Shown here: piece after piece, positions 5,272 to 51,972 of the stretch
Numbering within the stretch: the stretch's first letter is position 1
Layout of the letters: each line of letters opens with the position of its first letter
Assembly: GCA_963841755.1 (NCBI GenBank)
Contig: CAWJDX010000009.1
Coordinates: 10,880-74,879 of the forward strand
Length of the DNA: 64,000 nt
Source: an uncultured Candidatus Rokubacteria bacterium
GTDB lineage: Bacteria > Methylomirabilota > Methylomirabilia > Rokubacteriales > CSP1-6
Reading direction: 5' to 3'
The notes under the pieces: model-generated
What the model saw: only the letters and a program-made list of their open reading frames with translations
What the model was told of the DNA's origin: nothing
The model's database searches: none
Made by a program: the position numbers and the translations under genes

Positions 5272-6653
5272 ATGGCGACCAACGTCATCATGCCCGCGCT
5301 CGAGCTGGCCCAGGAGACCGGCAAGCTCCTGCGCTGGATCAAGGCGCCGGGCGACACGGTGCGCAAGGGCGAGCCCATCGCCGAGATCGAGACCGACAAG
5401 GTCACGATCGAGCTCGAGGCCCCCGCCTCCGGCGTCCTGAGCGCGGTCACCGCCCAGGAAGGCGACGTCGTCCCCGTCGGCCACACCATCGCCCAGATCG
5501 CCGCCCCCAACGAAGCCGCCTCCCCCCTCTCCCCTCTGGGGAGAGGGCAGGGTGAGGGGCCCAAAGGTGAGGGGCCCAAAGGTGAGGGGCCCAAAGGTGA
5601 GGGGCCCGCGCCGAAGCGCCCCCCGGCGACACGCGCCCGAAAGCCTCCCCCCTCGCCCGCAAGATCGCCGAGGAGCACGGTGTCGACCTCGCCCGCGTCA
5701 AGACCGCGAGCGGCAAGATCGAGAAGGCCGACGTGCTCGCCTTCGTCGAGAGCCAGCGCGTGGTCGCGGCGCCGACGAATGGCTCGGCGGGGCGCCTCGT
5801 CGCCGCGTCGCCGAAGGCGCGGCGGCTGGCGGCGGAGCGCGGGATCGATCTGCGCGCGCTGAAGGGGTCGGGGCCGGGGGGCGCGGTGCTGACGCTGGAT
5901 GTGCCGGAGGCCACTGCGCCTTCCACCACTACCAAGCCCCTCACCACCGGGCCCCTCACCCTGCCCTCTCCCCAGAGGGGAGAGGGGGGAGGGGTGGGGA
6001 CGGTGTGGCGGATCATGGCGGAGCGGATGACCGCGTCGTGGACGAGCGCGCCGCACTTCTACCTGGTGCGCGAGGTCAACGTGACGCGGCTGGCCGCGTG
6101 GCTTCAGACGGCGCGCAAGCAGACGGGCGCGCACGTCACGTACACGGACCTGCTGGTCAAGCTGGTGGCGGCCACGCTGGCCCAGCACCCGCGCGTGAAC
6201 GTGTCGTGGAAGGACGGCACGCTCGAGCGTCACGCCGACATCAACATCGGCCTGGCCGTCGCGCTGGAGGACGGGCTCGTCGTCCCGGTGCTCCACAAGG
6301 CCGACACGCTGGGGCTCAAGGAGATCGCCACCCGTCGCGAGGACCTGGTGACGCGGGCCCAGTCCGGCAAGCTGCGGCCGGCCGACATCCAGGGCGGCGT
6401 CTTCACGATCAGCAACCTCGGCATGTACGGCGTGGACGCGTTCAGCGCCATCGTCAATCCGCCGCAGGCCGCGATCCTGGCGGTGGGCCGCATCACCGAT
6501 CGCGTCGTCCCGGTCAACGGCCAGCCGGCCGTGCAGCCGACCATGGTGCTCACGCTGTCCTGCGACCATCGCGCCCTCGACGGCGCCCGGGGCGCCCAGT
6601 TCCTCGGGGCGCTCGCGGATCTCGTCGAGGAGCCGCTGGCCCTGCTCGTCTGA
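5272..6653 (+). CDS. Dihydrolipoamide acyltransferase E2 (lipoyl domain, two PSBDs, catalytic domain); one frameshift near 5620
   Basis: ETDKV lipoyl-Lys, two PSBDs (KASPLARKIA; AASPKARRLA), catalytic DHRALDG. One C is missing in the C run 5619-5624; adding it joins ORF 5272 to the frame of ORF 5733. Confidence 0.9.
5519..5607 (-). repeat. REP-like family A copy inside the E2 linker, with 15-bp tandem tail (ggtgaggggcccaaa x3 + partial)
   Basis: 5519-5562 is the exact 44-bp reverse complement of 5949-5992. The tandem units at 5551, 5566, 5581 and 5596 encode GEGPK repeats. Confidence 0.9.
5937..5992 (+). repeat. REP-like family A copy inside the second E2 linker
   Basis: cccctcacc duplicated at 15-bp spacing (5937, 5952), followed by a 10-bp hairpin. 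Translates as PLTTGPLTLPSPQRGEGG. Confidence 0.9.
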
Positions 6654-6666
6654 GGATAATTCGGAC

Positions 6667-7971
6667 ATGGCATTCACCGACCGCTACGGCCTGACCGTCA
6701 CGACCGATTCACCCGTCGCCTTCGAGCGCTTCCAGAAGGGCATGGACGACCTGCTGTCCTACGGCCCCACCGGCGAGGAGCGGATGGCCGAGGCGCTCCA
6801 GGCCGATCCCGGCCTCGCGGTGGCGCACGCCGGCGTCGCGCTGATGGCGCTGGTGCAGGGCGACGCGGCCACCGCGCGCGACGCCATGGCCCGCGCGCGC
6901 GAGACGGTGGGCGGCGCCACCCGGCGCGAGCGGCAGCACGTGGAGGCGCTCTCCGCCTTCGTGGGCGGCGAGAGCGCCCGCGGCTTCGCGCTCGCGGACG
7001 AGCACGTCAAGGACTTCCCGCGCGACGCGGTGCTGGTGAACCAGGTGAGCAGCGCCATCGCCCTGGCCGGGGCCGCCGATCGCGAGGAGCACCGGGTGGG
7101 CTTCATGGAGCGGCTCGCCCCCGCCTACGGCGACGACTGGTGGTACCAGTCCGCGCTCGCGTTCACCTACCACGAGGTGGACCGCTTCGAGGAGTCGCGG
7201 CGCCTCTCGGAGGCCTCGCTCCGGCAGTACCCGCGCAACGCGCACGCCTCGCACAACCTGGCCCACATCGCGTTCGAGACCCTCGACGTCGCGGCGGGCG
7301 CCGCCTTCCTCGACGAGTGGATGGCGGGCTACGACCGGCGCGCGTCGTTCCACTGCCACCTGGCCTGGCACCAGGCGATGTTCGCGCTCCACGAGGGCCG
7401 CTACGCGAAGGCCCTCGACATCTTCGAGCGCGACATCCTGCGCTCGGGCAACCCGCGCTCGGCGATGACCGACGGCACCGCGCTGCTCTGGCGGGTGAAG
7501 CTCGACGGCGCGAGCGAGCAGCCGCTGCCCTGGCGATCCCTGGCCGAGCTGGCCGCGAAGGTCTCGCGCCCCGGCTTCCTCTTCGGCGAGGTGCACGCCG
7601 CCTTCGCCTACGCCGCGTGCGGCGACGAGGCGGCGCTGGCGAAGATGATGGACGGCCTGCGGGCGCTGGGCGCGAAGGGCCATCCGATCGCGGCCAGCCT
7701 CGTGCTGCCGCTGGTGCAGGGGACCGCCGCGTTCGCGGCGGGCGACCACGCGGGGGCGCTGCGCCTCTTCGAGCCGGTCGAGGCCGAGATGCACCGCATC
7801 GGCGGCAGCCACGCCCAGTGGGAGATCTACGAGGAGACCATGGTGCAGTGCTACCTCGCGCTCGAGCGCTACGACGACGCCACGCGCCTCGTGCGCCGCC
7901 GCCTCGCGCGCCGCGCCTCGCCGCGCGATCAGCAGTGGCTCGCCCGCGCGAGCCGCGGGCCGGCGGCGTGA
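6667..7971 (+). CDS. TPR protein, TTC38-like family
   Basis: Helical TPR pattern. HASHNLAH, HCHLAWH and RIGGSHAQ are typical of TTC38-like proteins. Confidence 0.75.
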   Translation: MAFTDRYGLTVTTDSPVAFERFQKGMDDLLSYGPTGEERMAEALQADPGLAVAHAGVALMALVQGDAATARDAMARARETVGGATRRERQHVEALSAFVGGESARGFALADEHVKDFPRDAVLVNQVSSAIALAGAADREEHRVGFMERLAPAYGDDWWYQSALAFTYHEVDRFEESRRLSEASLRQYPRNAHASHNLAHIAFETLDVAAGAAFLDEWMAGYDRRASFHCHLAWHQAMFALHEGRYAKALDIFERDILRSGNPRSAMTDGTALLWRVKLDGASEQPLPWRSLAELAAKVSRPGFLFGEVHAAFAYAACGDEAALAKMMDGLRALGAKGHPIAASLVLPLVQGTAAFAAGDHAGALRLFEPVEAEMHRIGGSHAQWEIYEETMVQCYLALERYDDATRLVRRRLARRASPRDQQWLARASRGPAA

Positions 7972-25810: not shown

Positions 25811-26329
25811 ATGGCACGGATGGAGCCGCTCGGGATTCACGAGGTCGACGACCAGATCCGGCACATGTGCGAGGAGTCGGAGCGCCAGATCGGCACCTCG
25901 GCCAGCACGCGCACGTACGCCCGCAACCCGATGGTGGTCAAGGCGCTCGCCGCCTTCCGCGGCACCCTGACCCGCGAGGGGACGATCGACCCGGTCGTCC
26001 TGGAGCTGGTGCGGATCAAGATCGCGGGGCTCAACGCCTGTCGCTACTGACTCAAGGCGCGCTATGCCGGGGCCCGGCATGCGGGAGCGACCGAGCAGAA
26101 GATCGCCGCGATCAACGACGAGACGTCCACGCTGCTGACCCCGAGGGAGCGGGCCGCGGTCCGCTTCGCCGAGAAGCTCGCGGTGGATCACCAGAAGGTC
26201 GACGACGAGCTGTGGGCCGAGGTGCGCGCCCAGTTCTCGGAGGCCGAGGTGATCGAGCTGGTGGCGCACACCACGCTCTACATCGGGTTCGGCCGGTTCA
26301 ACGAGATCGTGGGGATCGACCCGGCCTAG
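25811..26329 (+). CDS. AhpD/carboxymuconolactone decarboxylase-like selenoprotein (CxxU)
   Basis: In-frame TGA at 26048-26050 in NA-C-R-Y-U. The same frame continues 92 codons with CMD-like LTPRERAAVRFAE..FSEAEVIEL..GFGRFN to TAG. SECIS-like hairpin follows. Confidence 0.85.
26060..26083 (+). promoter_or_regulatory. Putative bacterial SECIS element
   Basis: CGC, bulged U, AUGCCGG-[GGC]-CCGGCAU, GCG. The loop starts 21 nt after the UGA. It uses codons (tat, cat, gga) that are uncommon in neighbouring genes. Confidence 0.7.
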
Positions 26330-43988: not shown

Positions 43989-44747
43989 CTACTGGGCCAG
44001 CGCGCCGCCGTCGATGACCAGCTCGCTGCCGGTCATGTAGGAGGAGTCGTCGGAGGCGAGGTAGAGCACCGCGCTCACGATCTCGGGGACGGTGCCCATC
44101 CGGCGCAGGGGCACGCGCTGGAGGCGCTTCTCCATGGCGTCGCGGTCGCGGAAGGCGCTGTGGAACATCTCGGTGTCGACCGGGCCCGGGTGGACCGAGT
44201 TGCAGCGGATCTTGTCCTTGGCGTGCTGGGACGCGGTCACCTTGGTGAAGATCCGGATCGCGCCCTTGCTCGCCGCGTAGGCCGGCTCCTGGTGCAGCGA
44301 CTGGCCGATGCCGGCCACCGAGGAGATGTTGACGATCGAGCCGCCGCCCGAGCGGCGCATGGCCGGGATCGCGTACTTGGTGCCGAGGAAGACGCCCTTG
44401 GCGTTCACCGCCATCACCTGGTCCCACTCCGCGACGGTGCGCTCCTCGATCGGCACCTTGGGGATCACGATGGCCGCGTTGTTGACCAGGACGTCGAGCC
44501 GGCCGTGGCTATCGAGCGCGGTCTGCACCGCGGCCCGCCAGTCCGCCTCGCTGGTCACGTCCAGGTGGAGGTAGATGGCGTCGCCGCCCCCCGCCCGGAT
44601 GCCCGCCTCGACCTTCTTCCCCTCGTCGTCCCGGATGTCGCCGAAGACGACCTTGGCGCCCTCGCGCGCGAAGGTCTCCGCCTCCGCCGCGCCCTGCCCC
44701 CGGGCCCCGCCGCTGATCAGCGCGACCTTCCCGTCCAGTTTGCCCAT
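43989..44747 (-). CDS. Classical SDR (3alpha,20beta-HSD / cyclopentanol dehydrogenase-like)
   Basis: SGGARGQG, VNNA, YAASK and NSVHPG. Confidence 0.92.
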   Translation of the reverse strand: MGKLDGKVALISGGARGQGAAEAETFAREGAKVVFGDIRDDEGKKVEAGIRAGGGDAIYLHLDVTSEADWRAAVQTALDSHGRLDVLVNNAAIVIPKVPIEERTVAEWDQVMAVNAKGVFLGTKYAIPAMRRSGGGSIVNISSVAGIGQSLHQEPAYAASKGAIRIFTKVTASQHAKDKIRCNSVHPGPVDTEMFHSAFRDRDAMEKRLQRVPLRRMGTVPEIVSAVLYLASDDSSYMTGSELVIDGGALAQ

Positions 44748-44848
44748 AGTGTTCTCCCTGGCCAGCCGCCCTCGCCCATCGGAATTGCCGACGCGTCCCG
44801 GTGCTTCCGCAAATAGTAGTCCGATCGGGTTGGAGGAGTGGCAGAAAT

Positions 44849-45961
44849 GTGGTTGACTTTCACCCCGTGGGGCCTCGCTCGACGTGGTGGCGGATCTTCG
44901 AGCGGCCGAGCCTCGGCGGGGTGCTCGCCGGGGTGGCCGTCTGGGTGGTGGTGGTGTCCGCCCTGCACGTCGTCGTCAATCACCGCGGCGCGCTCACTCC
45001 CGGCGCGGAGGCCCGCACCCTGGAGGTGGGCGGCCTGCCGGTCACGTGAAACCTCACGCTGCCGATCGCCAGTCTGGCGATGTCGCGGGACGCGGAGGGC
45101 CGGTCGGTGGTCGACGTGACCCTCGCCGACTCCCCGGCCGAGTACAGCAAGTACAGCGGGTGGCCCGAGCTGAAGGAGTCGTTCATGGCCGGCAAGGTCA
45201 AGGCGGCCTACCTGCTCGCGCCGATGGTGATGGATCTCGTGGAGAGCGGGGTGGACGCCAAGATCGTGTCGCTCGGTCATCGCTCGGGCGCGGTCATCAT
45301 GGTGCGGAAGGACTCGCCCGCGAAGAGCTTCCGCGACCTGCGCGGCCGGCGCATCGCGATCCCGAGCCGGTTCGCGGTCGACCACCTCTTCGTGCGCCGC
45401 ATGCTCAAGGAGAGCGGCATGACCGTCCGCGACGTGGAGCTGGTGGAGATGGCGCCGCCCGAGATGCCGGCCGCCCTCTACGCGGACCAGGTCGACGCCT
45501 ACGCGACCGGTGAGCCGTTCGGGGCGGTGGCGGAGGTGGCGGGCTACGCGCGCCCCCTCTACATGACGCGCGACAAGTGGCCGGACTACGTCTGCTGCGT
45601 GCTCACGGTGCGCCAGGAGCTGATCGACCGCGACCGGCGGCAGGTGCAGCAGATCGTCAACCACGTGCTGTCCGCCGGCGCGTGGCTCGAGACCGCGCAG
45701 GCCAACCGCGACCGGGCCGCCGACATCGCGGCCGGCCCCACCCTGTTCAACCAGCGCGCCGACATCATCAAGCACGTGCTCACCAATCCCCGCGACCGGG
45801 TGACCTACGCGGACCTGCGGCTCATCAAGTCCGAGATGGACGAGCTGATGGAGGCCGCGCTCGAGGCCGGCATCATCCGCCAGCGCATCCCCTACGAGCG
45901 GTACGTGGACGAGAGCTTCCAGCGCGCCGCGCGCCCGGTGGACATCCGTGTGGAGCGGTAG
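44849..45961 (+). CDS. NrtA/CmpA/SsuA-type ABC substrate-binding selenoprotein (in-frame TGA 45047-45049)
   Basis: ORFs 44801-45049 and 45080-45961 share a frame and are separated only by TGA plus 10 sense codons. The joined read is TM anchor, LEVGGLPVT-U-NLTLP, SGWPEL, YLLAPM, GEPF, WPDYVCCVL. Start is GTG 44849 or 44867. Confidence 0.82.
45065..45081 (+). promoter_or_regulatory. Putative bacterial SECIS element
   Basis: AUCGCCA-[GUC]-UGGCGAU perfect 7-bp stem. The loop starts 23 nt after the UGA and includes a rare AGT codon. Confidence 0.68.
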
Positions 45962-46709
45962 GCTCGCCTGGCTGCCCCTGCTGGGCCCGGTGGCCCTGCT
46001 GGTCGCGGTCTGGCACGTGGCGGTCGCGCTGAGCGGCAGCCTGATCTTCCCGACGCCCTGGCAGGTGGCGGTGGGCCTCGGGGACCTCGCCTGGCGCGGG
46101 CTCCTGCTCAAGCACGTGATCGCGTCGCTCTTCCGCGTCACGTGCGGCTACCTGCTGGCCGCCGCGCTCGCCATTCCGATCGGCATGCTGATGGGCTGGT
46201 TCGCCACCGCGCACGCCTTCCTGAACCCGCTCGTGCAGGGGCTCCGCCCGATCTCGCCGATCGCCTGGATCCCGCTCGCGATCCTCTGGTTCGGGGTGGG
46301 GGACCTCTCGCCGATCTTCCTGATCTTCCTCTCGTCGTTCTTTCCCATGGTGGTGGGGACCGCGGCGGGGGTGATGACGATCGACCGCAAGTACCTCCGG
46401 GCCGCCCGCAACTTCGAGTACCGCGGCTTCCGGCTCTTCCGCTCGGTGATCCTGCCCGCCGCGCTGCCCCAGATCGTGACCGGCATGCGCATCGGGCTCG
46501 GGGTCGCCTGGCTCGTGGTGGTGGCGGCGGAGATGATCGCGGTGAGCTCCGGCCTCGGCTACCTGATCATCGACTCGCGCAACGCGGGCAACCGCTACGA
46601 CCTCGTGGTGGCCGGCATGCTCACGATCGGGGTCGTCGGGTTCGTGCTCGACACCCTCATGCGCGGGCTCGAGCGCCTCGACGAGGTGCGCTGGCGCTAT
46701 GAGGCCTGA
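45948..46709 (+). CDS. ABC permease (NitT/TauT/SsuC type)
   Basis: SLFRV..GY, RPISPIAWIP and LPQIVTGMRIG..WLVVVAAEM. Overlaps the SBP stop. Confidence 0.92.
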   Translation: MWSGRLAWLPLLGPVALLVAVWHVAVALSGSLIFPTPWQVAVGLGDLAWRGLLLKHVIASLFRVTCGYLLAAALAIPIGMLMGWFATAHAFLNPLVQGLRPISPIAWIPLAILWFGVGDLSPIFLIFLSSFFPMVVGTAAGVMTIDRKYLRAARNFEYRGFRLFRSVILPAALPQIVTGMRIGLGVAWLVVVAAEMIAVSSGLGYLIIDSRNAGNRYDLVVAGMLTIGVVGFVLDTLMRGLERLDEVRWRYEA

Positions 46710-46715
46710 GATCCC

Positions 46716-47480
46716 GTGAGGCCCAAGATCGAGATCCGGTCGATCTCCAAGACGTTCGTGACGCGCGGGGGGCCGGTGCCGGTGCTGGACGACCTGAGCT
46801 TCGAGGTGGCCGACGGCGAGTTCGTCGCGATCATCGGCCCGTCGGGCTGCGGGAAGTCGACGCTCCTCGGCGTGCTCGCCGGCTTCGAGCGCCCGGACCG
46901 GGGCGAGGTCCGCGTCGACGGCGAGCCGGTGCGGGAGCCCGGGCGCAAGGGCATGTTCATCTTCCAGCAGCCGTCGCTCTTCCCCTGGCTCGACCTGGAG
47001 CGCAACCTCGTCTTCGGCCTGAACGGCGAGTCCGCCGAGACGCGGCGCAGCCTGGTCGCGCACTACATCGCGCTGGTCGGCCTCGAGGGGTTCGAGCGCG
47101 CCTTTCCCAACCAGCTCTCCGGCGGGATGCAGCAGCGGGCCGAGCTGGCGCGGGCCCTGATGGTGAAGCCGGAGATCCTCTACCTGGACGAGCCGTTCGG
47201 CGCGCTCGACGCGCTGACCCGGCTGCGCATGCGGGCCGAGCTGCTCCGGATCCTGTCGCGCGAGCGCCACACCGTGCTGCTGGTGACCCACGACGTGGAG
47301 GAGGCGCTGCACCTGGCCGATCGCGTGCTCGTGCTCTCGCCGCGGCCGGCCCGCATCCAGCACGTCGTCGAGGTGACGCTCCCGCGCCCCCGCGCGCTCT
47401 CGAATCCGGAGCTGATCGCGCTCAAGGCGTCGCTCCTGCGCGAGCTGGGCGTGGACGAGCAGGCGGGGGAGCCCTCGTGA
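46716..47480 (+). CDS. ABC ATPase (SsuB/NrtD type)
   Basis: [26 protein letters not shown] and VTHDVEEA. Confidence 0.93.
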
Positions 47481-48091
47481 TCGGCGCGCGCGTCCTCGCG
47501 GCCGGCGGCGCTCGCGATCGCCTGCCTGGCGGCGGGCCCGGCCGCCCACGCGGCGCCCGCCGGCGCGGCCGGGCTCCGCAGCGGCGCCTTCGATCCGCCG
47601 CGGCCGGCGCCCGAGTTCGCGCTGCCCTCGACCGGCGGCGCCGAGTTCCGGCTGAGCCGCCAGCTCGGCAAGGTCATCGTGCTGACCTTCGGCTACACGA
47701 GCTGCCCCGACATCTGCCCCACCGTGCTGGCCGAGCTGGCCCAGGTGCGGGAGCGGCTCGGCGGGGCGGCGAAGCGGGTGCAGGTGGTCTACGTGAGCGT
47801 CGACCCCGAGCGGGACACGCCGGCGCGCCTCCGCGCCTACACCGAGCAGTTCGACAAGACCTTCCTCGGGCTCACCGGAGCCGACGGAGCAGCTCGCCCC
47901 GGTGTGGAAGGCCTACGGGGTCTCGGTGGTGCGGCGCGAGCTGCCCGGCACCAAGCCGCGCGATGTACCTGATCCATCACTCCGCGTCCGTGTTCCTGAT
48001 CGACCCGGCCGGCCGCCTGCGCGTGATGGCGCCCTTCGGGACTCCGGTGGACGACGTCCTGCACGACATCCGCACCCTGCTCGAGGAGTGA
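47477..48091 (+). CDS. SCO family copper chaperone; frameshifts near 47505, 47880 and 47960
   Basis: Signal-like N-terminus, FGYTSCPDICP (CxxxC), VSVDPERDTP and IHHSASVFLIDP (Cu-binding His). GTG overlaps the ATPase stop. Confidence 0.88.
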   Translation: MIGARVLAAGGARDRLPGGGPGRPRGARRRGRAPQRRLRSAAAGARVRAALDRRRRVPAEPPARQGHRADLRLHELPRHLPHRAGRAGPGAGAARRGGEAGAGGLRERRPRAGHAGAPPRLHRAVRQDLPRAHRSRRSSSPRCGRPTGSRWCGASCPAPSRAMYLIHHSASVFLIDPAGRLRVMAPFGTPVDDVLHDIRTLLEE

Positions 48092-48095
48092 GCCG

Positions 48096-48540
48096 ATGCG
48101 CCGACTGCTCGTTCTCGCGCTGGCCGGCCTGGTCGTGGCTCCGGCCGCCGTCGCCCAGGAAGCGCGCCATCCGTCTGGAGAAGCCGTGGGTCCGCCGGGC
48201 CCCGGCCATGCCGGACGCGCGGCCGGGCGCGGAGAGCACCGCGGCGGGCTACGTCACCCTGCTGAATCGCGGGCCCGACCGCGACGCCCTGGTCGCGGCG
48301 TCGGCCGACGTCGCGGCGCGGGTCGAGCTGCACGAGACCCGCAACATGTCCGGGATGATGATGATGGAGCGGGTGGACAAGGTCGAGCTGGCCCCGGGCT
48401 CGCGCGTCGAGCTCCGGCCGGGCTCCTATCATCTGATGCTGATCGGGCTCAAGCGCGCGCTGACCCCGGGCCAGACCGTCACCCTCACCCTCGAGTTCGA
48501 GCGGGGCGGACGGATGACGACCCGCGCGGAGGTGCGGTGA
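48096..48540 (+). CDS. PCuAC-family periplasmic copper chaperone; frameshift near 48165
   Basis: Signal peptide, AAGYVTL.N, ELHET..MSGMMMM and PGSYHLMLIGL (H-M-H-M ligands). Confidence 0.88.
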
Positions 48541-48964
48541 CCCGCCGGCCCGCGGCGCTCGCGGCGGTGGCGGGCCTCGCGCTCGCTCTCGTCGCGCTCG
48601 CCTGGGCCGCGCTCGCGCCGCTGCCGGCGGGCTCGCACGCGCTGACCTTCGTGATCCCGCCGGGCACCGCGGCGCGCCTCAAGGCGGGCGAGGCGGCGAG
48701 CGTCCTGCCCTCGCCGATCCACCTCACGTCGGGGTGCGCGACGTGCTCGTGCTCACCAACGACGACGACGTCATCCACCAGGTCGGCCCCATCATCCTCG
48801 GCTCGCGCCAGACCTACCGGATCCCGTTCCGCAAGCCGGGGCGGTTCCAGTACGCGTGCTCGCTCCACGCGGCGGGCACGCTCGCGCTCGTCATCGACCC
48901 GCCGCCCGCGGCCGGCCTCGAGCGGCTGCGGTGGCGCCTCGGTCAGCTCACCGCCCGCTCCTGA
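48537..48964 (+). CDS. Membrane-anchored cupredoxin-like protein; frameshift near 48728
   Basis: TM helix, FVIPPGT, LTNDDDVIHQVG and FQYACSLH (His...Cys-x2-His). GTG overlaps the PCuAC stop. Confidence 0.7.
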
Positions 48965-48980
48965 CTGGAGACATCGGCCC

Positions 48981-50358
48981 ATGCTCGAGGAGCCCACGTC
49001 CCTCCGGATCGACGACCCCGGCGTCCGCGCGCTGTTCACCGAGCCGGCACGCTTCCAGTCCTGGCTGGACGTCGAGGCGGCGCTGGCCCGGGCGCAGGCC
49101 GAGCTCGGCATCATCCCGGAGGCGGCGGCCCGCGAGATCGTCCGCAAGGCGCACCTCTCCTTCCTGGACCTGGCCGCGGTGCGGGAGGGCCTGGCCCGCA
49201 CCGGCCATCCGCTGGTGCCGCTGGTGTGGGAGCTCGATCGCGCCTGCGAGGGCGACGCGGGCGGCTTCGTGCACTGGGGCGCGACCACCCAGAACGTCAC
49301 CCAGACCGGCCAGCTCCTGCAGGTGCGGCGGGCGCACGAGATCTTCCTGCGCCAGCTCGCGGCCGATCCTCACCACGCTCGCGGACCTGGCCGAGCGCAC
49401 CCGGGACGTGCTGCTGCCCGGCCGCACCCACGGTCAGCACGCGGTGCCGGCCACCTTCGGCTTCAAGGTCGCGGTGTGGATCGACGAGCTGGGCCGCCAC
49501 GTCGATCGCCTGCAGGGCTGCGAGGCCCGCGTGTTCGTGGCCATGCTGGGCGGCGGCGCGGGCACCCTCGCCTCGCTCGGCGAGCTGGGCCTGGCCACCC
49601 AGGAGAAGATGGCGGCGCACCTCGGCATGGCCCCGATGCGGCTGCCCGCGCGCACCATCGGCGATCACCAGGCCGAGTACGTGACCCTGCTCGGCATGCT
49701 CGCCTCGACGTGCAGCAAGATCGGCCGCGAGATCTACACCCTCATGAAGCAGGAGTTCGGCGAGGTCGAGGAGCCGGTGCCGCCCGGCACCGTCGGCAGC
49801 AGCACGATGCCGCAGAAGCGCAACCCCAAGCTCTCGCAGGACATCATCGCGGCCGCCGCGCAGGTGCGGGCGCTGGTGCCGCTGGCCCTCGAGGCCATGC
49901 AGACCGAGCACGAGGCCGACCGCACCACCAGCATCATGATGAGCCGCGCCCTCGTGCAGGCGTGCGAGCTGACCGGCGACCTGCTGCAGCGGATGATGGT
50001 GCTCTTCGACGGGCTCCAGGTCTTCCCGGACCGCATGCGCGAGAACCTCGACCTCTCGGGCGGCCTGATCATGGCCGAGGCGCTGATGCTCGAGCTGGGC
50101 CGGCAGATCGGGCGGCAGCGCGCGCACGACGCGGTCTACGAGGCGGCGCAGGCCTCGGTGACCGAGTCGCGCCCGTTCCGGGAGATGCTGGCGCTGGACC
50201 CGCACGTGAGCGCGGGGCTCACCCCGTCGCAGATGGAGACGCTGCTCGACCCCGCCCGCTACACCGGGCTCTGCCGCGAGTTCGCGGAGCGGGGCGCCGC
50301 GCTCGGGCGCGAGATCGCGGCGGCCATCGAGCGGCGGCCCGCGGGCCGGGTCACCTGA
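48981..50358 (+). CDS. Fumarase/aspartase superfamily lyase (adenylosuccinate lyase / 3-carboxymuconate cycloisomerase-like); frameshift near 49360
   Basis: HWGATTQN, GRTHGQHA and GSSTMPQKRNP signature. Confidence 0.9.
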
Positions 50359-51908
50359 GCCGCAGATCCTCGTAGGGCGAGAGGTAGGGGTGCCCCGGGA
50401 TCGTGGGCACCTCCGCCAGGCGCGGCCCGACCCCGGTCAGCAGCGGCGGCTCCACGATGGGCGCGAACATCGCGCGCTCGTGCATGAGCTGCTGGATGCG
50501 GTGGAGCAGCGCCTCGCGGCGCTTGCGGTCGGGCTCGGCGGCCTGGTCCCGGAAGAGCGCGTCGATGTCCGGATAGCCTCCGTACGAGCGGATCCCGCTC
50601 GAGAGCACGAACGCCTCGATCCGGGTCGCCGCGTTGCCGGCGGTGCCGCTGCCCACCCGGATCAGGTGCTTGAACTGCTTGTCCTGGTCCGCCTTGTAGA
50701 ACGCGGCCCGCTCCATCGGGCGCAGCCGCGCCCGGATGCCGACGGACCGCAGGCCGTTGATGACCGCCTCCGCCTCCGGCGCGAACACCACGTCGGTGGC
50801 GACCTCGCCCGCGTCGAAGCCCTTCGGGTAGCCCGCCTCGGCCAGGAGCTGCTTCGCCCGCGCCGGATCGTGCGGGTACTCGGGGGGCGCCCAGTAGAAC
50901 TCGTACTCGCGGGGGATGATGCTGGAGGCCGCCTTGCCGAACCCGAGATACTCCGCCTGGCTCAGGGTCTTCCGGTCGATGGCGAGGTTCGCCGCGAGCC
51001 GCACCCGCTGATCGGCCCAGGGCGACTTCGGATCCCACTGCTGGGTGAACGTGAGCCACTGGGTGAAGGTCGGGTAGGTGACCTTGAGGGCGAGGCCCGG
51101 CGTACGTCGAACTTCCTCCCCGAGCGGGCCGCGCAGCGAGTACGCCACGTCGGCCTCGGCGCGCTTGAGCATGGCCAGGCGCGTCGAGTCGTCGGGGATC
51201 GACTTGAACACGAGGCGCTTCACCGCCGGCGCCTTCCGCCAGTAGCCGTCGTGGGCCTCCAGCACCAGCTCGATCCCGGGGCTGAAGGACACGAAGCGGT
51301 AGGGGCCGGCCCCGACCGGCGCCTTCTTGAACCCGTCGTCGCCGACGCGCTCGAGGTAGGCCTTCGGCACGATCCAGGCGGCCCCGCTGGCCGGCGTCGC
51401 GTAGAACGTCATGAAGTCGGGCCACGGCTGCTTGAGCCGGAAGCGCACGCGGTGGGCGTCGACGATCTCGACCGCGGCGACGTGCGCCTTCAGGGTTCCC
51501 GCCGCGGCGCCCTTGTACCGCTCGAAGGAGAACTTCACGTCCTCCGCGGTGAGGAGGTCGCCGTTGTGGAATCGCACGCCCTTGCGGAGCGACGAACTCG
51601 TAGATGAGCCCGTCCTTCGACTGCGTCCACGACTCGGCCAGGCTCGGCGTCCACGCGTTGCCCGGCATCGGCTTCACGAGCGCGTCGTGGAGCGCGTACA
51701 GCATCAGGAAGGGGGTGATGACGCCCGCGGTCTCGGCCGGGTCGAACCACGTGGGGGCCAGCGAGATATGGACCGCGAGCGTGATCTGCCCGTCCGCGGC
51801 CCGGGCGGGCGGGGGCGCCGGCCAGAGGGCCAGGGCGCCCAGAGGGCCAGGGCCCCGATGACGAGGGATGACGAGGACGCCGAGCGGTCGCGACCGGCCG
51901 GGCTCCAC
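50351..51908 (-). CDS. Orphan family-5 ABC substrate-binding protein; frameshift near 51590
   Basis: WFDPAET, FHNGDLLTAEDVKFSF and QWDPKSPWADQRVR. Likely start GTG 51908. Confidence 0.88.
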
Positions 51909-51972
51909 GGCGGGGAGCATACACCCCGAGGCCGGGGCTGGGAACCGGGCCGGTCCGGCGCGCGGCGGCCGG

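Follow-up and report, generated by a model that had tools for sequence, protein, structure and literature searches.

Gene organization of the locus

In this study, we examined a gene cluster at positions 44849-48964 of a 64,000-nucleotide (nt) stretch of DNA from an uncultured Candidatus Rokubacteria bacterium (contig CAWJDX010000009.1); this whole stretch is hereafter called the window, and position numbers refer to it. The cluster encodes the substrate-binding protein, permease, and ATPase of an ATP-binding cassette (ABC) transporter together with three members of copper-protein families, namely SCO, PCuAC, and a membrane-anchored protein with a cupredoxin fold. The binding-protein gene contains an in-frame TGA codon, which almost certainly specifies selenocysteine (Sec), and what we describe below is a new selenoprotein family in a conserved and apparently undescribed copper-linked ABC module. 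The features of the cluster are as follows.

44832..44837, + strand: likely ribosome-binding site GGAGGA, 11 nt 5' of GTG 44849, read from the sequence
44849..45961, + strand: ABC substrate-binding protein of the NMT1/SsuA type, assigned by joined translation, Pfam, alignments, an AlphaFold2 (AF2) model, and a PDB match
45047..45049, + strand: in-frame TGA, almost certainly read as Sec, judging from Cys in homologs, a tally of codons, and the Sec machinery
45065..45081, + strand: hairpin ATCGCCA-GTC-TGGCGAT of the selenocysteine insertion sequence (SECIS) type, with a 7-bp stem and the loop GUC, 15 nt past the UGA
45948..46709, + strand: ABC permease (BPD_transp_1), overlapping the binding-protein gene by 14 nt, with the motif GVMTID
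46716..47480, + strand: ABC ATPase (ABC_tran), assigned by its open reading frame (ORF) and Pfam
47477..48091, + strand: SCO1/SenC copper chaperone with CPDICP and a His in YLIHHSA; the stop codon of the ATPase gene is overlapped by its start (GTGA); in three frames
48096..48540, + strand: PCuAC copper chaperone (Pfam PCuAC PF04314, 1.4e-34) with HETRNMSGMMMM ... YHLM; in two frames
48537..48964, + strand: membrane-anchored cupredoxin-fold protein of ~141 amino acids (aa), assigned by a fold match and belonging to no Pfam family; in two frames

An ORF that begins at GTG 44801 or GTG 44849 stops at TGA 45047-45049, and the same frame runs on past this codon as a 293-aa ORF ending at 45961. The start codon of the binding protein is uncertain, GTG 44801 being in frame with GTG 44849, and residue numbers such as Sec83 are counted here from GTG 44801. 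When the two ORFs were joined, Pfam NMT1_2 covered residues 69-310 (1.2e-30) and hence extended across U83, and the alignment to full-length homologs was unbroken; the sequences on either side of the TGA belong to a single NMT1/SsuA-type protein. A first-pass annotation of this DNA, made by a model from the sequence alone, had described a binding-protein gene with an in-frame TGA, which is confirmed by the shared frame and by the profile spanning the codon, and had called its product NrtA/SsuA-like, with which the Pfam and NCBIfam profiles and the fold match agree. The AF2 model of the joined protein, the modeling of which had been proposed in that annotation, has a predicted local distance difference test score (pLDDT) of 89.7, and its best match in PDB is 3UN6. 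As far as sequence and predicted fold can tell, it is established, or nearly so, that the product of 44849-45961 is a single ABC substrate-binding protein, full length and facing the periplasm.

This protein has an N-terminal signal anchor, Sec83 in GGLPVT-U-NLTLP, an invariant His160 (GHRSG), and the pair Cys265-Cys266. In the public annotation, it appears as a 293-aa product, the gene callers having split the gene at the TGA. With an NMT1-type binding protein, a BPD_transp_1 permease, and an ABC_tran ATPase in one operon, the transporter corresponds to an importer of the NitT/TauT type. Twin-arginine signals, which are typical of proteins exported in a folded state, are present in 73 of 84 binding proteins, including most of the types with Cys at the Sec position (e.g., those at 5884-6939 of locus L025 and 5863-6930 of locus L039), with LRRRQVLKSAL as an example of the signal; a lipobox often follows. 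The Sec form in the window has only the hydrophobic signal anchor, with no twin-arginine (RR) motif.

Decoding of the in-frame TGA

Scanning of species-representative genomes gave 543 relatives of the binding protein, and the codon at the Sec column was read from the best 80 loci together with loci fetched earlier. Of 88 related genes, 15, which represent 8 distinct sequences, have TGA at this column, and all the others have a Cys codon (66 TGC and 7 TGT). The genes with TGA came from metagenome bins of the Methylomirabilota/Rokuibacteriota type, Binatia, and "Deltaproteobacteria," which were assembled independently and mostly from short reads. In a protein search, more than 100 clusters with 67-99% identity were hit, all of which had been called as proteins of 293 or 284 aa starting just past the TGA. 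The more remote homologs (57-73% identity) have full-length sequences of 335-354 aa, and Cys is invariant at the Sec column in 13 full-length homologs (GGLPVT-C-NLTLP).

The hairpin downstream of the TGA is shared among the relatives: all of the 8 distinct TGA forms have a contiguous hairpin of 7-9 bp in the same register with G at loop position 1 or 2, and the longest local stem in the Cys forms is 5 bp in the median. When the 91 nt around the TGA were folded as a whole, they were not more stable than shuffled sequence (z = -0.65). The fold of the whole stretch is thus unremarkable for its base composition, and the case for the hairpin rests on the comparison with relatives but not on energy. 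Almost no compensatory covariation was seen among the 8 distinct TGA forms because the stem is nearly invariant, and an Rfam scan of 44600-45250 gave neither SECIS nor any other RNA family, with a single match at chance level.

All four of selA, selB, selC, and selD are present in this genome. The genes for tRNA-Sec (C2:198708-198805), selA (C2:200218-201571, split by a frameshift), and selB (C2:201605-203488) lie together on contig 2, and selD (C5:313378-314313) carries an in-frame TGA of its own, so that it probably encodes a Sec-containing selenophosphate synthetase. There is also a second selD-like gene at C4:260009-260809. Regarding the genomes with the TGA form, selB scored above the cut-off in six of the eight and was split over contig ends in a seventh. 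In the genomes of Massilia, Steroidobacter, and Povalibacter that carry the Cys form, selB was not found.

The reading of the TGA as a Sec codon and of the downstream stem as SECIS-like, both put forward in the first-pass annotation, is hence supported by the Cys of orthologs, the hairpin conserved throughout the distinct TGA forms, the Sec machinery, and a further candidate selenoprotein gene (CxxU) of the window that has a hairpin of this type. From these comparisons, we are nearly certain that UGA 45047 is decoded as Sec with the help of the hairpin at 45065-45081.

Conservation and spread of the module

Linkage of the genes was examined by tblastn of the six proteins against all 86 loci. 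SCO adjoins the binding-protein gene in every one of them, and its linkage to the binding protein is therefore not unique to this contig; the small cupredoxin-fold protein was found in 77 loci, the permease in 79, and the ATPase in 75, with the gaps being mostly contig ends. The genes are usually arranged in the order of binding protein, SCO, small protein, permease, and ATPase, as is seen in Burkholderiales (Massilia, Roseateles, Rugamonas, Undibacterium), Steroidobacterales, Xanthomonadales, Myxococcota, Acidobacteriota, and Binatia, and the five-gene module is distributed over Proteobacteria, Myxococcota, Acidobacteriota, Binatia, and Methylomirabilota. PCuAC had been regarded as a part of the conserved set but turned out to be no core component; in the binding-protein tree, it is limited to a single clade (support 1.00), which also holds every Sec form. 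The link of the module to copper consists of these three, namely SCO throughout, the cupredoxin in most loci, and PCuAC in the Sec clade.

Within this clade, the only Cys forms constitute a subclade in which the binding-protein gene is duplicated. In its four loci (L007, L014, L018, and L026), two paralogous binding-protein genes flank SCO-PCuAC, and there is no cupredoxin gene; a halogenase-like FAD enzyme is encoded directly upstream in three of the four. Given that the loci without the small protein carry PCuAC, these two proteins may have overlapping roles.

When ORFs flanking 80 loci were clustered, no conserved neighbor or cytoplasmic enzyme was found beyond the module itself, and the halogenase-like FAD enzyme adjoins only 9 loci. 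Such a self-contained gene set is usual for metal-uptake cassettes. We take it as shown, or nearly so, that the module is conserved and self-contained, its members being the ABC transporter (binding protein, permease, and ATPase), SCO, and the membrane-anchored cupredoxin and/or PCuAC. We also considered a link to Mo-Cu CO dehydrogenase, but this was dropped; the xanthine-dehydrogenase-like genes that adjoin the module in locus L003 and those at 21.8-25.5 kb of the window have neither AYxCSFR nor AYRGAGR.

The subclade to which the window belongs (L003 and L008-L013) has some peculiarities. The second Cys of the motif, which occurs as PVAC in nearly all relatives including other Sec forms, is Ser91 (PIAS, 45071-45073) in this subclade. 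Also, Met replaces the conserved His in the permease motif GVHTI, which most relatives retain and which reads GVMTID in the window, and in the cupredoxin, the Gln/Met of most relatives is replaced by His/Leu. A number of putative ligand positions have thus changed jointly in the subclade.

The predicted metal site

The protein 3UN6 of Staphylococcus aureus, deposited "with zinc bound," is the best PDB match of the binding protein by both sequence (hmmsearch E 2.5e-39) and fold (Foldseek TM 0.83/0.91). The Cys-Cys (YVCCVLTV), Gly-His (LGHRSG), WPE, and GEPFG motifs of 3UN6 are conserved in the window protein. His46 of 3UN6 (LPITH), however, is replaced by Sec/Cys in this family, and most members add a further Cys eight residues past the Sec/Cys column. 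We hence infer that Sec83, His160, and Cys265-Cys266, with Cys91 in most relatives (Ser here), would constitute a soft-ligand metal site in the cleft. The Sec/Cys/Cys metal site suggested in the first-pass annotation is plausible to this extent, namely by homology to a protein that binds zinc, shares the Cys-Cys and Gly-His motifs, and has His where this family has Sec.

Binding proteins like 3UN6 are known to accompany clade B Ni-CODH (nickel-containing carbon monoxide dehydrogenase) genes (PMC6344411, PMC13592312); a site made up of two Cys residues together with one or two His residues has been predicted in the cleft of these 3UN6 relatives (PMC13592312), and nickel import has been proposed for them (PMC6344411). 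While the 3UN6 relatives adjoin CODH genes, the family described here adjoins copper chaperones.

The cupredoxin-fold small protein

No Pfam family matched the small protein encoded at the end of the cluster. The AF2 model of its ortholog in L008 (pLDDT 94.2) has a membrane helix at the N terminus, followed by a cupredoxin sandwich and then a helix at the C terminus, and Foldseek matched it to 5FC9 (purple cupredoxin), 2CUA/CuA domains, amicyanin, and plastocyanin with a probability of 1.00 and E values of 1e-4 to 1e-3; the copper chaperone CupA stood lower in the list. The cupredoxin-like identity proposed earlier is accordingly upheld by the predicted fold and its matches. In the window, the loop C-x2-H-x4-L (YACSLHAAGTL) is preceded by an upstream His in VIHQVGP. 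In the alignment of 59-72 sequences, which have a C-x2-H-x4-(M/L) loop, Cys107, His110, and Gly113 are invariant, and the axial position is Met in 56 sequences and Leu in 15. At the first position for a type-1 copper ligand, Gln predominates (63 of 72 sequences) over His (7) and Ala (2); the lineage of the window has His.

Neighboring genes and the state of the assembly

While the three transporter genes have no indels relative to four relatives (L008, L009, L012, and L003), several of the genes that follow are interrupted in this assembly. Compared with these relatives, and in each case specific to the window against three or four of them, the SCO gene has 1-nt insertions at ~47879, ~47959, and probably 47507, the PCuAC gene a 1-nt insertion at ~48165, the cupredoxin gene a 1-nt deletion at ~48727, and a Lyase_1 family gene located downstream of the cupredoxin gene and lying in two frames a 1-nt indel at ~49363. 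It is worth noting that five of the indels (47879-49363) cluster within 1.5 kb directly after the three intact transporter genes. A peptide-binding-protein gene at 50259-51920 (- strand) is also frameshifted, as is selA. These single-base indels are probably (long-read) assembly errors; such errors are the likelier cause because the corresponding genes of L008 are intact and because selA and the gene at 50259-51920 are frameshifted as well.

In L008, a relative with 96% identity, all six genes are intact; three of their junctions are overlaps (14, 4, and 4 nt) and the other two are gaps (6 and 4 nt). The identities of the six gene products given in the first-pass annotation, that is, the binding protein, permease, ATPase, SCO, PCuAC, and cupredoxin-like protein, were correct, but three of the genes are not intact in the window; likewise, the tight coupling described for all six genes is seen in the window for the first three and in L008 for all six. 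At the junction of the permease and ATPase genes, the window and L008 share 17 extra nt (46708-46724), and the two genes overlap in L009 and L012.

The intact SCO ortholog of L008 has 202 aa and matches Pfam SCO1-SenC (7.3e-36), and at least 90% of the 78 SCO sequences compared retain the CxxxC motif and the distal His. SCO also matches the AhpC-TSA and Redoxin families. The PCuAC ortholog of L008 is likewise intact (147 aa), and the PCuAC gene in the window is the only one found in this genome (84% complete), in which there is one COX2 gene.

Outside the cluster, one further feature of the window concerns Sec.

25811-26329, + strand: second candidate selenoprotein, CMD/AhpD-like (Pfam CMD, 5e-16), with the motif C-R-Y-U and TGA 26048-26050

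A hairpin with a 7-bp stem (ATGCCGG-GGC-CCGGCAT) begins 13 nt past TGA 26048 and has the same architecture as that of the binding-protein gene. This CMD/AhpD-like gene is likely to be a second selenoprotein gene of the window.

Discussion

How would these proteins work together? In our proposal, PCuAC and/or the cupredoxin, and then SCO, would capture copper in the periplasm and keep it reduced; these chaperones would hand Cu(I) over to the Sec/Cys site of the binding protein, from which the ABC transporter would move copper into the cytoplasm. The module would thereby serve as a high-affinity route of copper uptake, and a selenolate instead of a thiolate might allow tighter or faster capture of Cu(I) in the Sec lineage. 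For this statement as a whole, namely a Sec-containing binding protein with a soft metal site serving copper uptake through an ABC module, we see about an even chance, and some copper-related role of the module is quite probable. It is from the gene content that we infer copper to be the cargo and the chaperones to feed the binding protein. The flow could also be in the reverse direction, such that the binding protein or the cupredoxin receives its metal from the chaperones.

Several points weigh against copper uptake. SCO and PCuAC are known to deliver copper to targets in the periplasm and not to importers; an importer encoded beside them is not an obvious fit with this known delivery. The widespread twin-arginine signals would suit a fixed metal centre at least as well as a site for transported copper. 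No copper-responsive operator was found upstream, where only GC-rich words recur across the loci, and frameshifts interrupt the SCO, PCuAC, and cupredoxin genes of this assembly. As described above, the cupredoxin mostly has Gln and not His at its first type-1 ligand position. Furthermore, the CODH-linked relatives of 3UN6 are thought to import a small molecule instead of a metal (PMC13592312).

Some of these points lead to the main rival explanation, in which the metal is not the cargo but a fixed cofactor. SCO, together with PCuAC/cupredoxin, would then build the Sec/Cys-His-Cys-Cys centre, with copper in this family and zinc in 3UN6, and the metal would hold the actual cargo, a small and soft ligand or anion (e.g., sulfide, a thiol, cyanide, or thiocyanate), for import by the ABC transporter. 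Metallation of periplasmic proteins is indeed the established role of SCO and PCuAC, and the twin-arginine signals recall copper enzymes such as NosZ, which are exported by the twin-arginine route and metallated in the periplasm. A precedent for cargo held by a metal is CmpA, in which a bound Ca2+ holds bicarbonate; CmpA has the same fold, and its structure (PDB 2I4B) was among the matches of the binding protein. Also, 3UN6 was crystallized with its metal, and the import of a substrate molecule argued for its CODH-linked relatives would fit a cofactor. The module, however, has no conserved cytoplasmic enzyme beside it that would use such a cargo, the four or five protein ligands would leave little space on the metal for a further one, and the membrane-anchored cupredoxin is a more conventional target of SCO/PCuAC than the binding protein. 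Taken together, we consider a fixed cofactor rather unlikely.

Instead of copper, the transported species might be another thiophilic metal or metalloid (e.g., Zn, Ni, Co, Ag, Hg, or a Se or S species), and SCO would then act mainly as a thiol-disulfide reductase keeping the site reduced. The zinc in 3UN6 and the nickel import proposed for its relatives (PMC6344411) are consistent with this, as are the thioredoxin fold of SCO with its AhpC-TSA and Redoxin matches and the NCBIfam results, where the permease and ATPase scored best against SaoP and SaoA, which belong to the proposed organometallic SAO system. Nonetheless, three copper-protein families are linked to the module, including an SCO in which the copper-binding His is kept, and the change of His to Cys/Sec relative to 3UN6 softens the site, which favors Cu(I) over Zn or Ni. 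A supply of selenium is improbable as the purpose, since most carriers of the Cys form have no Sec machinery. Another thiophilic metal or metalloid as the cargo is hence improbable in our view. It would be still less probable, and very much so, that the TGA is a true stop codon, either in a pseudogene, through a sequencing error, or between two genes, with the operon decaying in this genome. The single-base indels in the SCO, PCuAC, cupredoxin, lyase, and selA genes of this assembly may appear to favor decay, as may the split call of the binding-protein gene and its 293-aa entry in the public annotation. Yet the same TGA occurs at the same column in 8 distinct, independently assembled sequences from several phyla-level groups, the three transporter genes are free of indels relative to their relatives, and the hairpin and the Sec machinery are present. 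The piece upstream of the TGA, moreover, retains the signal anchor, the conserved first strand, and the motif, and the 293-aa piece alone would have no export signal.

Entry of copper through the bacterial inner membrane is a largely open question, for which an ABC importer joined to three copper-protein families provides a testable candidate. Carriers of the module are available in culture, such as Roseateles saccharophilus DSM 654, Massilia, Steroidobacter, and Povalibacter, and genetics and biochemistry are therefore feasible. The Sec forms represent a selenoprotein family that is missing from current lists and appears in public databases, wrongly, as a 293-aa truncation; they point to the residue performing the chemistry and extend the theme of Sec as a soft-metal ligand in transport proteins. 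If copper uptake proves true, this would be the first selenolate ligand of copper in a nutrient-uptake protein. The family may also help explain the 3UN6-type binding proteins encoded beside clade B CODH genes.

Comparison with known systems

In the literature, we found neither this gene combination nor the selenoprotein family described, in keeping with the earlier suspicion that the combination was undescribed. For ABC components, a table of prokaryotic selenoproteins in a 2026 review includes SaoB, SaoX, and SaoP and no others (PMC13188914), and this family is not mentioned in the BSepDB paper either.

The SAO system (Haft and Gwadz 2023; preprint 10.1101/2022.07.06.499078) resembles the module in having Sec in an ABC binding protein among conserved Cys residues of the predicted cleft, and SaoX has the same general fold with Cys-Cys in the cleft. 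Among the NCBIfam profiles, the best matches were SaoP for the permease (191.2 against a cut-off of 295) and SaoA for the ATPase (222.4 against 360); the binding protein scored 43.4 against SaoX (cut-off 300), and no match to SaoB was obtained in this search. Unlike in SAO, the permease of the window contains no Sec, and the neighbors are not SaoL, SaoC, SaoT, and SaoE but SCO, PCuAC, the cupredoxin, and a lyase. SaoC was not found in a genome-wide search, which was performed with no positive control. In addition, SAO is hosted by strict anaerobes, whereas the hosts here are aerobic soil lineages. With scores far below the cut-offs and different neighbors, the module is not a member of SAO.

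Identification with SsuA, TauA, or NrtA was also rejected by curated cut-offs, the binding protein scoring below all of the equivalog and subfamily thresholds, including those of SsuA_fam (108 vs 163.5) and TauA (27 vs 304). The likeness to NrtA, CmpA, SsuA, and TauA lies in the fold and in the NitT/TauT transporter family (NMT1_2, BPD_transp_1, ABC_tran). At the positions of the pocket, this family differs from them in having Sec/Cys, His, and Cys-Cys in place of anion-binding residues.

The systems for CuA delivery in Thermus and Bradyrhizobium use the same SCO and PCuAC families, the metal-binding residues of which are kept here, and the chaperones of the module are encoded beside a membrane-anchored cupredoxin that resembles the CuA domain by fold. 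This cupredoxin has only one Cys, however, and its site would thus be type-1-like and not a binuclear CuA site. Also in contrast to CuA delivery, it is not an oxidase subunit, and the genes are located within the operon of an ABC importer.

As regards function, the closest comparison is CcoA/CalT, for which the proposed role is the same, namely the import of periplasmic copper into the cytoplasm for copper enzymes (PMC7558416). CcoA is a member of the major facilitator superfamily (MFS), and it differs from the module in its unrelated family, in its energy source, and in that ccoA has no attached genes for a binding protein or chaperones. According to a 2020 review, the MFS-type CcoA is the sole established copper importer of the inner membrane, and others probably exist (PMC7558416). 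We would tentatively suggest, as a possibility somewhat short of even, that the widespread five-gene module described here is the first ABC-type, binding-protein-dependent copper importer, with a cysteine-rich binding protein loaded with Cu(I) by the periplasmic chaperones (SCO and a dedicated membrane cupredoxin and/or PCuAC), in which one soil lineage (Methylomirabilota and neighbors) has upgraded a key ligand to Sec.

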